Source: an uncultured virus (IMG/VR IMGVR_UViG_3300027734_000063) (Duplodnaviria > Heunggongvirae > Uroviricota > Caudoviricetes). Taken from it: DNA of 20,000 bases. The first letter of the stretch is position 1. Every line of letters begins with the position of its first letter. Where the stretch lies: the IMG/VR virus record IMGVR_UViG_3300027734_000063. One strand, given 5' to 3'. The notes under the pieces were generated by a model. The model worked only from the letters and a program-made list of their open reading frames with translations. It was not told the origin of the DNA and did not search any database. A program made the translations under genes and the position numbers. This document shows, in pieces, positions 18,656 through 20,000 of the stretch.

Positions 18656-18919
18656 GGGTATCTCTTGATAATCGGCATACCCCTGATTCTAGGACACTTA
18701 GGACTATTCTGCTAGTGATCTCTCTATCCTCTAGTGTTATCTCTCTCTAGTGCTTTACTTACTGGGCTGTTTCGCTTCGCTATTTACCCCGCTTTTAGGC
18801 TAATTTGCCCCGATTTATGCGAGCCACAGAGCCGTGCTTTATCTTTTTATGAGCCTTGATGCACAAGTAATGCTCTCTCGCATCTGGAATATCACCCTGC
18901 AAGCCTTATTCTATAAGGG

Positions 18920-18983
18920 ATAAAAATATTTTAAATAAATACTTGACAGTCAATAAATCTATGCTTGACAATGAAATTGTCAA
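18920..18983. promoter_or_regulatory. Divergent sigma70-type promoter region with operator-like inverted repeats
   Basis: AT-rich UP-like tract (18920-41); TTGACA (18943-48)-N18-GACAAT on +; TTGACA-N16-TAGATT on -; palindromes TTGAC-A-GTCAA (18943-53) and TTGACAAT-GAA-ATTGTCAA (18965-83). Confidence 0.6.
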
Positions 18984-19008
18984 TCACCTGATGACTTGTT
19001 AATTAACC

Positions 19009-19022
19009 ACCTGCTAGGAGTT
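19009..19022 (+). repeat. 14-nt leader/RBS repeat ACCTGCTAGGAGTT, copy 1
   Basis: Identical copy at 19908-19921. Confidence 0.8.
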
Positions 19023-19027
19023 TACTA

Positions 19028-19174
19028 ATGAATCTACTGCCATCACTTGTATCACCAATGGACATCCACCAATGTATTAAGCATTGTGGGGTTCGCTATA
19101 CATTTTGGAGACTGACTGAGTGCGATAACTGCTCGGTTGGTCGTGCCATCTACCTAATCCTACTATCCATCTAA
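19028..19174 (+). CDS. Small early protein, 48 aa, Cys-rich (below the ORF-track cutoff)
   Basis: AGGAG RBS; MNLLPSLVSPMDIHQCIKHCGVRYTFWRLTECDNCSVGRAIYLILLSI; its stop overlaps the next RBS. Confidence 0.65.
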   Translation: MNLLPSLVSPMDIHQCIKHCGVRYTFWRLTECDNCSVGRAIYLILLSI

Positions 19175-19184
19175 GGGGAATCTC

Positions 19185-19460
19185 ATGGCTAACTGGAAGC
19201 AAACCCTTGATATTACTGACCTGATGGATGCTTTTGAGCAAACTGAGGATGCCCTTACCTTTGCCAAAAAAGCCTCAATCCGCATTACTAAATTCATCGA
19301 GACTAATCAGTCTTGGGCTGATCGCAACGATATCACCGAAGACTTAGAGGAGATCGCTGAAAGCCTGTCCTACGCTGACGATACTGCCGAGGTTGATTAC
19401 ATCTTGGCTGACCTGTATGACCTTGCCGACAATGCCCGTATTTGGGTTAAGACTTTTTAA
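19185..19460 (+). CDS. Acidic early hypothetical protein
   Basis: 91 aa; AAGGGG RBS; about 21 Asp/Glu versus 8 Lys/Arg. Confidence 0.8.
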   Translation: MANWKQTLDITDLMDAFEQTEDALTFAKKASIRITKFIETNQSWADRNDITEDLEEIAESLSYADDTAEVDYILADLYDLADNARIWVKTF

Positions 19461-19470
19461 GGAGAATCAC

Positions 19471-19710
19471 ATGACTGATAAAGAATTTATTGAAATATTT
19501 AAAAAACACGCTTGCAAGAACTACAACAATGGCTACGACTATATCGTTGAATGTTGGACTGACGAAGAATTACTGGAAGAACTGGCTTACTGTGGTGGGG
19601 ATACGATTAAATTTACTGACAGTATGCAAGATATTGTTAATTTGTATCTGCAAAAACAGCAAGAGCAGAGAGCCGATGTCATTGATTTTGGCGAAACACC
19701 TAATTTTTAA
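19471..19710 (+). CDS. Acidic early hypothetical protein (79 aa)
   Basis: Likely start ATG at 19471 behind TAAGGAG (MTDKEFIEIFKKHACKNYNNGYDYIVECWTDEEL...). Confidence 0.8.
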   Translation: MTDKEFIEIFKKHACKNYNNGYDYIVECWTDEELLEELAYCGGDTIKFTDSMQDIVNLYLQKQQEQRADVIDFGETPNF

Positions 19711-19721
19711 GGGGACTGATT

Positions 19722-19862
19722 ATGTTTATGACTGACGATGAAATCAACGATTACTACGATTCACATCCTGACCTGACACTTGCCCAGTTAAGCCGTATGA
19801 CAGGCAAATCTGTGGAGCAATTAAAACGCATCCTGATGCCCGATTATTACGAGTCAAACTGA
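19722..19862 (+). CDS. Small early protein, 46 aa, HTH-like
   Basis: AAGGGG RBS; MFMTDDEINDYYDSHPDLTLAQLSRMTGKSVEQLKRILMPDYYESN; the TGA stop lies in the hammerhead core. Confidence 0.7.
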   Translation: MFMTDDEINDYYDSHPDLTLAQLSRMTGKSVEQLKRILMPDYYESN

Positions 19863-19905
19863 TGATGGGGTTTTTCCCCGAAACAATCGAGAGATTGTCT
19901 TTGAC
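19853..19905 (+). ncRNA. Type I hammerhead self-cleaving ribozyme
   Basis: Stem I GUCAAA/UUUGAC; core CUGAUGA plus an extra U; stem II GGGG-UUUUU-CCCC; GAA; stem III ACAAUC-GAGA-GAUUGU; cleavage triplet GUC at 19897-19899. Confidence 0.9.
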
Positions 19906-19907
19906 AA

Positions 19908-19921
19908 ACCTGCTAGGAGTT
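19908..19921 (+). repeat. 14-nt leader/RBS repeat ACCTGCTAGGAGTT, copy 2
   Basis: Identical copy at 19009-19022. Confidence 0.8.
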
Positions 19922-19924
19922 GAA

Positions 19925-20000
19925 ATGAGAGTTATGAAAATTGTTAGATCGGAAGTGATCGTGCCAAAAGGTAGTTATGTAATTGGTGATCCCTGCTATG
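19925..20000 (+). CDS. Early hypothetical protein, N-terminal fragment (YVIGDPCY motif)
   Basis: AGGAG RBS; MRVMKIVRSEVIVPKGSYVIGDPCY runs off the window. Confidence 0.65.
   Translation, partial: MRVMKIVRSEVIVPKGSYVIGDPCY

Follow-up and report, generated by a model that had tools for sequence, protein, structure and literature searches.

A type I hammerhead ribozyme between small genes of an uncultured tailed phage, with the upstream stop codon in its catalytic core

Overview

Positions 19853-19905 of the window, by which is meant the whole stretch of 20,000 nucleotides analysed here (uncultured virus record IMGVR_UViG_3300027734_000063), form a genuine and conserved type I hammerhead fold. 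The reading preferred here, at a probability of about 0.6 and from the comparison of sequences, is that this cis-acting ribozyme punctuates a long operon of small genes and that its overlap with the stop codon of the upstream gene is passive. An initial annotation of the same DNA had proposed the hammerhead, the splitting of a polycistron by it, and a coupling of its cleavage to translation through the stop codon in the core. Ribozyme identity and polycistron splitting are upheld by covariation, by the position of at least 99 copies and by the phage arrays described in PMC3088659; the special coupling is not. The stop codon in the core looks like a tolerated overlap rather than a proven switch.

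The window belongs to a tailed-phage contig with its terminase subunits on the minus strand (PHROG matches), and the large ORFs after the terminase are read as portal and capsid. The closest match of the capsid protein (73%) is in a 65-kb phage deposited under cyanobacterial hosts, and the Pelagibacter phages HTVC023P and HTVC027P match it at 61-62%. Among cultured phages no DNA relative of the window was found, the search returning two 48-nt matches at E 0.008. A hint at the host is provided by a related phage, in which L165:10640-10745 (minus strand) matches the Betaproteobacteria-1 RNA (RF02932, 78.9 bits).

Architecture of the hammerhead

The ribozyme is composed of the following elements:

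19853..19905, plus strand: type I hammerhead ribozyme with an extra U after A9 (local fold, stem descriptor, covariation, covariance model)
19853..19858, plus strand: stem I, 5' strand GUCAAA, coding (end of a Glu codon, a Ser codon and most of an Asn codon of the upstream ORF)
19859..19866, plus strand: core C3-A9, CUGAUGA (19859-65), followed by the extra U (19866)
19867..19879, plus strand: stem II, 4 bp (GGGG/CCCC) with loop UUUUU, compared across 54 subfamily loops
19880..19899, plus strand: GAA (19880-82), stem III (19883-98) with a GAGA loop, and the triplet GUC (19897-99)
19900..19924, plus strand: 25-nt leader of the predicted 3' product, opening with the stem I 3' strand UUUGAC (19900-05) and containing AGGAG (19915-19919)

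Each element that had been annotated at the outset (stems, core, GAA, GUC and GAGA loop) was borne out at its coordinates. The consensus core, C3 U4 G5 A6 N7 G8 A9 and G12 A13 A14, is provided by CUGAUGA (19859-65) and GAA (19880-82), and in 39 aligned copies, themselves chosen on the core, it is invariant except at N7. The pair A15.1-U16.1 corresponds to A19883-U19898, and the NUH triplet of a type I ribozyme to GUC at 19897-99, the triplet present in 89 of 98 copies among the matches listed. The pair G10.1-C11.1 is present as well, but the extra U stands between A9 and this pair. Cleavage is expected after C19899, which would place a 25-nt leader ahead of the ATG at 19925, as had been proposed. 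Likewise, the 5' strand of stem I is indeed coding sequence of the upstream 46-aa ORF, whose stop TGA (19860-62) lies inside CUGAUGA as claimed and is followed by a second in-frame TGA at 19863-65.

Conservation and covariation

The local minimum-energy fold of a 71-nt region is the hammerhead (-16.5 kcal/mol). Fold energy alone is unremarkable (z -1.64), and the bare sequence pattern is no rarer than chance, with 1 match versus 5.76 expected. A descriptor comprising the core and the three stems found a single site in the window, and 1000 dinucleotide shuffles returned 4 loose matches and none equally good. In an alignment of 39 copies, 98.2% of the cells are paired, compared with 29-41% in slid controls. 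Double-sided changes are seen at 14 of 16 pairs and, in relatives, at all 6 pairs of stem I. The alignment comprises the short 6-bp subfamily, namely the window and 38 of 41 candidates, pre-filtered for pairing (at least 4, 3 and 3 pairs), and pair I.5, which lies outside this filter, holds in 95 of 98 copies among the matches listed. Three helices, an open-ended stem I and backing by covariation place the element in type I. The initial annotation had proposed to check related phages for two signs, of which covariation was found (14 of 16 pairs) and conservation of the stop within the core was not (21 of 78 copies among the matches listed).

The search with known hammerhead covariance models that had been proposed as a check came back empty: in Rfam (release 15) the window is without match at the gathering score or at E up to 10, and sub-threshold matches occur in relatives only (Hammerhead_3, 30.5 bits, in L165; RAGATH-1-hammerhead, 27.4 bits, in L345). 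A covariance model built on the copies themselves scores the window copy, a member of its training set, at 74.8 bits, level with its relatives. A pattern of core plus stem II retrieved 33 viral loci, 32 of which complete stems I and III, and a looser pattern at least 120 viral loci, 55 of 119 re-matched ones completing both stems. With a similar pattern, which served as a control, only 2 of 120 bacterial loci complete the hammerhead fold, so that the scan of bacterial genomes yielded no host.

Altogether, at least 99 distinct hammerhead copies were found in phage contigs. Among the matches listed, 81 of 98 copies possess an additional base; it is invariably U, in part because the search patterns demanded U. 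The 17 canonical copies are neighbours in the same loci, and both forms coexist within one operon. Relatives carry 0-3 hammerheads in the examined stretch, with three in L165 and L204; the window has one, as does each of the partial records L161, L163 and L164. The extra-U subfamily is common, and it is absent from Rfam.

Conserved loop ends, flanking A residues and an A.A apposition at I.7 (58 of 98 copies among the matches listed) suggest that loop II may make a tertiary contact with stem I, as fast cleavage at low Mg2+ would require. Near position 1500 in L035, L042, L048, L050, L051, L065, L076, L081 and others lies a second extra-U subfamily, whose stem I has 5 bp. Judged by eye, it has an apparent pseudoknot between loop II and the 3' tail, and once cleavage had taken place, a downstream repeat would allow the new 5' end to form a hairpin; many of these 5'-end hairpins rank in the best tenth of swapped controls. 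In L163, L164, L204 and L009, stem III is extended by long, structured insertions of as much as about 70 nt; the same insertions turn up in different hammerheads, which suggests that parts were exchanged between copies.

Operon, leader and predicted processing

The surroundings of the ribozyme are as follows:

18943..18972, plus strand: sigma-70-like promoter match (TTGACA, 18 nt, GACAAT), a consensus match only
19009..19030, plus strand: first leader and start of the 48-aa first ORF (19028-19174)
19185..19710, plus strand: two small ORFs, 19185-19460 (91 aa) and 19471-19710 (79 aa), 10-11 nt from their neighbours
19722..19862, plus strand: 46-aa ORF of a conserved family, last five residues optional (homologues, substitution counts)
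19908..19921, plus strand: 14-nt leader segment identical to 19009-19022 in the leader that precedes the first gene behind the promoter-like site (repeat family D8)
19925..20000, plus strand: start of the downstream gene (phrog_20074), 137 aa in the relative L161 and identical here

A rightward run of small ORFs starts behind the promoter-like site and diverges from the terminase genes, and it is this layout that points to "early" timing of the operon; sigma-70-like matches as such (7 found versus 3.8 expected in shuffles) are weak evidence for a promoter. An inverted repeat with 11-nt arms (window 18962-18986) overlaps back-to-back promoter-like sites that lie between the rightward operon and the terminase genes, and is a possible operator. 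A second CTGATGA (window 18989-18995) is located in the first leader and kept in L163 and L164; a vestigial hammerhead at 18989 was rejected, as there is no GAAA, there are no stems, and neither descriptor nor model gives a match.

Record G001 is 100% identical to the window over 18900-20000, and L161, identical in the compared genes, extends the operon by about 5 kb beyond the window end. By our own ORF calling, gaps at the junctions of L161 range from -14 to +11 nt, the exceptions being the first leader, the hammerhead and an 82-nt spacer. All three wide junctions finish with one shared leader motif, of which a further copy is found inside a coding end. For the downstream 137-aa protein (phrog_20074), Pfam and PHROGs give no function. 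Across the class, a start with a Shine-Dalgarno-like motif follows 16-70 nt after the cut in 79 of 98 copies among the matches listed. As in the clustered hammerheads of phages, the element sits between genes of a polycistron whose identities are inconstant: different genes flank the unit of ribozyme and leader in relatives, and genes are shuffled around identical leaders. Comparison among relatives shows ribozyme and leader to be a movable unit that also marks points of gene shuffling.

In the preferred reading, when RNA polymerase has passed 19905 and no ribosome occupies the end of the 46-aa ORF, stem I would close and the RNA would be cut after C19899. The 5' piece would keep the whole ORF with its stop and end in two hairpins and a cyclic phosphate, while the 3' piece would begin with a 5'-OH and the 25-nt leader, its ribosome-binding segment matching the one of the first gene behind the promoter. 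Owing to this shared segment, the downstream block would receive its own standard 5' end, in the manner of RiboJ. We infer cleavage, and a stable 5'-OH downstream mRNA, from the sequences.

The stop codon in the core

The 46-aa ORF is real, as had been assumed: it has 39 homologues, and synonymous changes outnumber non-synonymous ones in L163 (7 versus 2) and L164 (3 versus 2); neither Pfam nor PHROGs matches the protein. Its C-terminus varies, with 19 of the 39 homologues ending at or before residue 41 and 20 in residues spelled by stem I, three homologues carrying a three-residue insertion in the tail with the frame kept, and two close homologues (88%) ending at residue 41 ahead of a long hairpin. 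Since homologues that lack the tail and end at about residue 41 are common, the five-residue tail is best read as translated ribozyme flank. The gene was located at 95 loci, which gave 68 distinct ends after duplicates had been merged and loci that ran off (3) or were too short (2) had been set aside. A hammerhead follows in 8 of the 68 scored loci and is lacking in 60 (about four rows look mis-parsed); in all 8 hammerhead-bearing copies the stop falls within the core, and stems II or III have been swapped.

Stop positions were scored in 78 of the 99 copies among the matches listed, the others being without upstream sequence (17), ambiguous (3) or ORF-less (1); rows represent related phages, and ORFs were picked by a rule of length plus Shine-Dalgarno motif. 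Among these listed matches the stop lies in the core in 21 copies, at -3 in 10 (a class inflated by the core plus stem II pattern, which required AA ahead of the core) and at -7 to -12 in 36; in 8 copies it lies at least 19 nt upstream, one copy has it in stem II, and the last 2 have it past the cut, each with a competing ORF that ends at -8. In other words, 46 of 78 copies stop 3-12 nt ahead of the core, and 67 of 78 within -12 to +1, again among the matches listed. From this spread it follows that the rule of the class is a stop at the 5' edge, not a stop in the core.

The reading frames offer a rationale for the overlap. In all 99 copies among the matches listed, the core frame meets a stop ahead of the cut, and the other two frames run beyond it in 75 and 49 of 99. 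A rough model on related sequences, in which every frame is entered with the frequency of the core frame, predicts about 26 read-throughs, versus 2 doubtful ones seen among the matches listed. Because the core frame alone always stops before the cut, the overlap needs no regulatory switch and is explained by selection that disfavours either stop-less 5' fragments or the passage of ribosomes across the cut. In the preferred reading the gene would naturally end about five codons earlier and run into the unit in the sole frame that always meets a UGA before the cut, while frames running past the cut, which are almost never seen, would leave a stop-less mRNA. The initial idea of the stop in the core as a special design for translation-coupled processing finds no support, given the 21 of 78 copies among the matches listed, the tail missing in 19 of 39 homologues, and a frame rule that suffices. 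What survives of the coupling is proximity: 67 of 78 stops are near enough for a ribosome to lie over stem I, and 8 of 8 copies of the gene are core-stopped. Since a ribosome at a stop within about 12 nt covers stem I, and since stems I and II vanish from the predicted fold when the ORF is masked to +12, some damping of cleavage by translation is likely, and this slowing would be a by-product, not a tuned switch.

The same observations could be taken further, namely that stem I is kept open by a ribosome terminating up to about 12 nt from the core, so that the message would remain intact during heavy translation of the upstream gene and be cut when translation drops, the gate extending to the long hairpins that share the slot (see below). 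This translational gating is unlikely, although a good deal points its way: the clustering of 67 of 78 stops within -12 to +1 (matches listed), the stop in the core of 8 of 8 hammerhead-bearing copies of the 46-aa gene despite exchanged stems, the three homologues whose three-residue insertion keeps the frame, the loss of stems I and II on masking to +12, and a stop at or in the 5' arm in all 9 genuine hairpin loci (of 32 matches). Tight packing alone, on the other hand, predicts the closeness of the stops, because plain junctions of the same operon are equally tight (-14 to +11). Furthermore, stops scatter over all frames with 8 of 78 at least 19 nt upstream (matches listed), the keeping of frame is needed anyway for stopping before the cut, and a terminating ribosome dwells for a far shorter time than the half-life of a hammerhead. 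In favour of gating, the engineered ribozyme riboJ57, which is inactive in E. coli, contains a translated ORF, a correlation (PMC7536230). Present data fit tuned coupling and tight packing alike and cannot separate the two.

Hairpins sharing the slot

The second spacer of L161 (82 nt) folds as a 20-bp hairpin with a 2-nt bulge, located at L161:4153-4234 (minus strand), with further sites in L002, L163, L171, L175, L182, L187, L189, L198, L202, L203 and L213. The hairpin sits between a stop codon and the shared leader; 9 of 32 pattern matches are genuine copies, and in all 9 the stop touches or falls in the 5' arm. Upstream of 15 homologues of the gene that follows the hairpin, 9 hammerheads, 4 hairpins and 2 instances of neither were found, seven of the 9 hammerhead loci being the same sequence. 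In L189 the 20-bp hairpin precedes a homologue of the downstream gene of the window. Covariation of the hairpin is thin, as 1 of 20 predicted pairs changes on both sides over 10 copies, and for the L163 hairpin a rival structure with two hairpins folds best. No Rfam match was obtained for the slot-sharing hairpins in the loci scanned. The simplest guess is that the 20-bp hairpin would be an RNase III site. That hammerhead and hairpin are interchangeable supports processing as their common job and the leader as a recombination joint. The same slot can also hold a second type of long hairpin, present at L203:4076-4158 and L213:4397-4479 and, directly behind the match, in L345 and L383, where the gene ahead of it is the 41-aa short version of the window's upstream gene.

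A bolder generalization, rather unlikely in our estimate, would make every operon joint in the clade a ribosome-gated processing slot, in which the stop lies on the 5' arm of a structured RNA (extra-U hammerhead, canonical hammerhead, or one of two uncatalogued long hairpins), the cut is made only when upstream translation lapses, and the released mRNAs share a leader. If true, the hairpin that replaces the hammerhead would also be a cutting signal, possibly an undescribed self-cleaving RNA.

Peculiarities of the window copy

Of the 54 subfamily copies among the matches listed, 53 have an A in loop II, the UUUUU of the window being the sole exception; L347 and L381 have the same stem II with the loop UCAAU. 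As this A is missing, the window copy may cut more slowly than its kin. The pairing probability of stem I falls from 0.34 through 0.17 to 0.0 as the folded segment is widened over three sizes, the class median of 0.145 being low as well, and its competitor is a weak hairpin that covers the Shine-Dalgarno motif. A special conserved hairpin from the new 5' end to the Shine-Dalgarno region was rejected, since 28% of swapped controls fold equally well or better. The stop is overlapped by an AUG at 19862, whose frame matches that of the downstream gene and stays open through the ribozyme (window 19862-19924; 21 extra codons). Re-initiation at this AUG was discarded as a class trait, as it is open and in frame in 7 of 98 copies among the matches listed and closed in L163 and L164.

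These traits could indicate a slow or decaying copy, the unit here serving mainly as a ribosome-binding leader and as shared sequence for cassette recombination. Such an account would draw on the exceptional loop II (one among 54 of the matches listed, with UCAAU on the same stem in L347 and L381), on the competing Shine-Dalgarno hairpin, on the shuffling of flanking genes around identical leaders, and on the loop change itself, which opens the in-frame AUG 19862 and could carry ribosomes through the motif (7 of 98 copies among the matches listed). It is quite improbable in view of the intact core, cut triplet and all 16 pairs, of a score of 74.8 bits, as high as in relatives (for a member of the training set), and of the same sequence in L161, L162 and L377, which rules out an assembly error.

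Cyanobacteria possess the 5' exonuclease RNase J, which, together with the closest capsid match (73%) to a phage with cyanobacterial hosts, counts for a cleavage that lowers expression; against it stand a strong dedicated leader after nearly every cut, and a Betaproteobacteria-1 RNA in a relative, pointing to hosts in which 5'-OH ends resist RNase E. Despite the precedent of glmS, where cleavage exposes a product to decay (PMC6765202), such a step-down or timer along the operon is highly improbable.

Significance

The purpose of phage hammerheads is described as undefined (PMC6765202), and the present clade bears on why phages carry self-cleaving ribozymes between genes. It offers natural swap controls of two kinds, the same gene with its stop in the core, before the stem or without ribozyme, and the same junction filled by hammerhead or hairpin; with these, the ideas on processing and translation coupling become testable with small reporters.

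Comparison with known systems

A literature search covering few subscription papers returned nothing on stop codons inside phage hammerheads or on an extra-U phage subfamily. An additional core nucleotide as such has a counterpart in the hammerhead of the CChMVd viroid: De la Pena and Flores are said to have reported in 2001 that it lies between A9 and G10.1, and that a U in this place raises the rate and occurs naturally. In the plus-strand CChMVd hammerhead, cleavage still takes place with the additional nucleotide, which, unlike the U here, is an A, belongs to a viroid ribozyme of type III and moderately lowers the rate (PMC3376415).

Clustered hammerheads that flank variable genes in prophages and phages were proposed to process transcripts into mRNAs the length of a gene or an operon (Perreault et al. 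2011, PMC3088659); three tandem arrays cleave in vitro and one in E. coli, and in a halovirus a hammerhead lies 13 nt ahead of an early gene (PMC3088659). The term "stop codon" occurs 0 times in the text of PMC3088659, where an overlap of hammerhead and stop is thus undiscussed, and six strings for the variant found no match in its 11 supplementary files, whose gapped alignments and figures could hide it. Like those arrays, the hammerhead described here lies between small, variable genes of a phage polycistron, with up to three per operon in relatives. It differs from them in the extra U after A9 (81 of 98 copies among the matches listed, with biased patterns), unnamed in the relevant sections of PMC3088659, in that no pseudoknot is evident in this 6-bp subfamily, and in the single hammerhead within the 13.6 kb of the nearest relative. 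Type I hammerheads that aid translation in eukaryotic RNA viruses represent a different setting (PMC13725137).

The RiboJ insulators likewise place a hammerhead before a ribosome-binding site, normalising the 5' leader and stabilising the mRNA (PMC7536230). RiboJ is engineered and stands behind a promoter, whereas the element in the window is natural, internal and overlaps an upstream ORF. A further parallel is the early region of T7, where RNase III sites cut one early transcript into units. These sites too are structured spacers, similar in size to the slot-sharing 20-bp hairpin, whereas cleavage by a hammerhead is protein-free and leaves a 5'-OH. Hammerheads that punctuate phage operons have been known since 2011, and the element in the window is an ordinary example of them.
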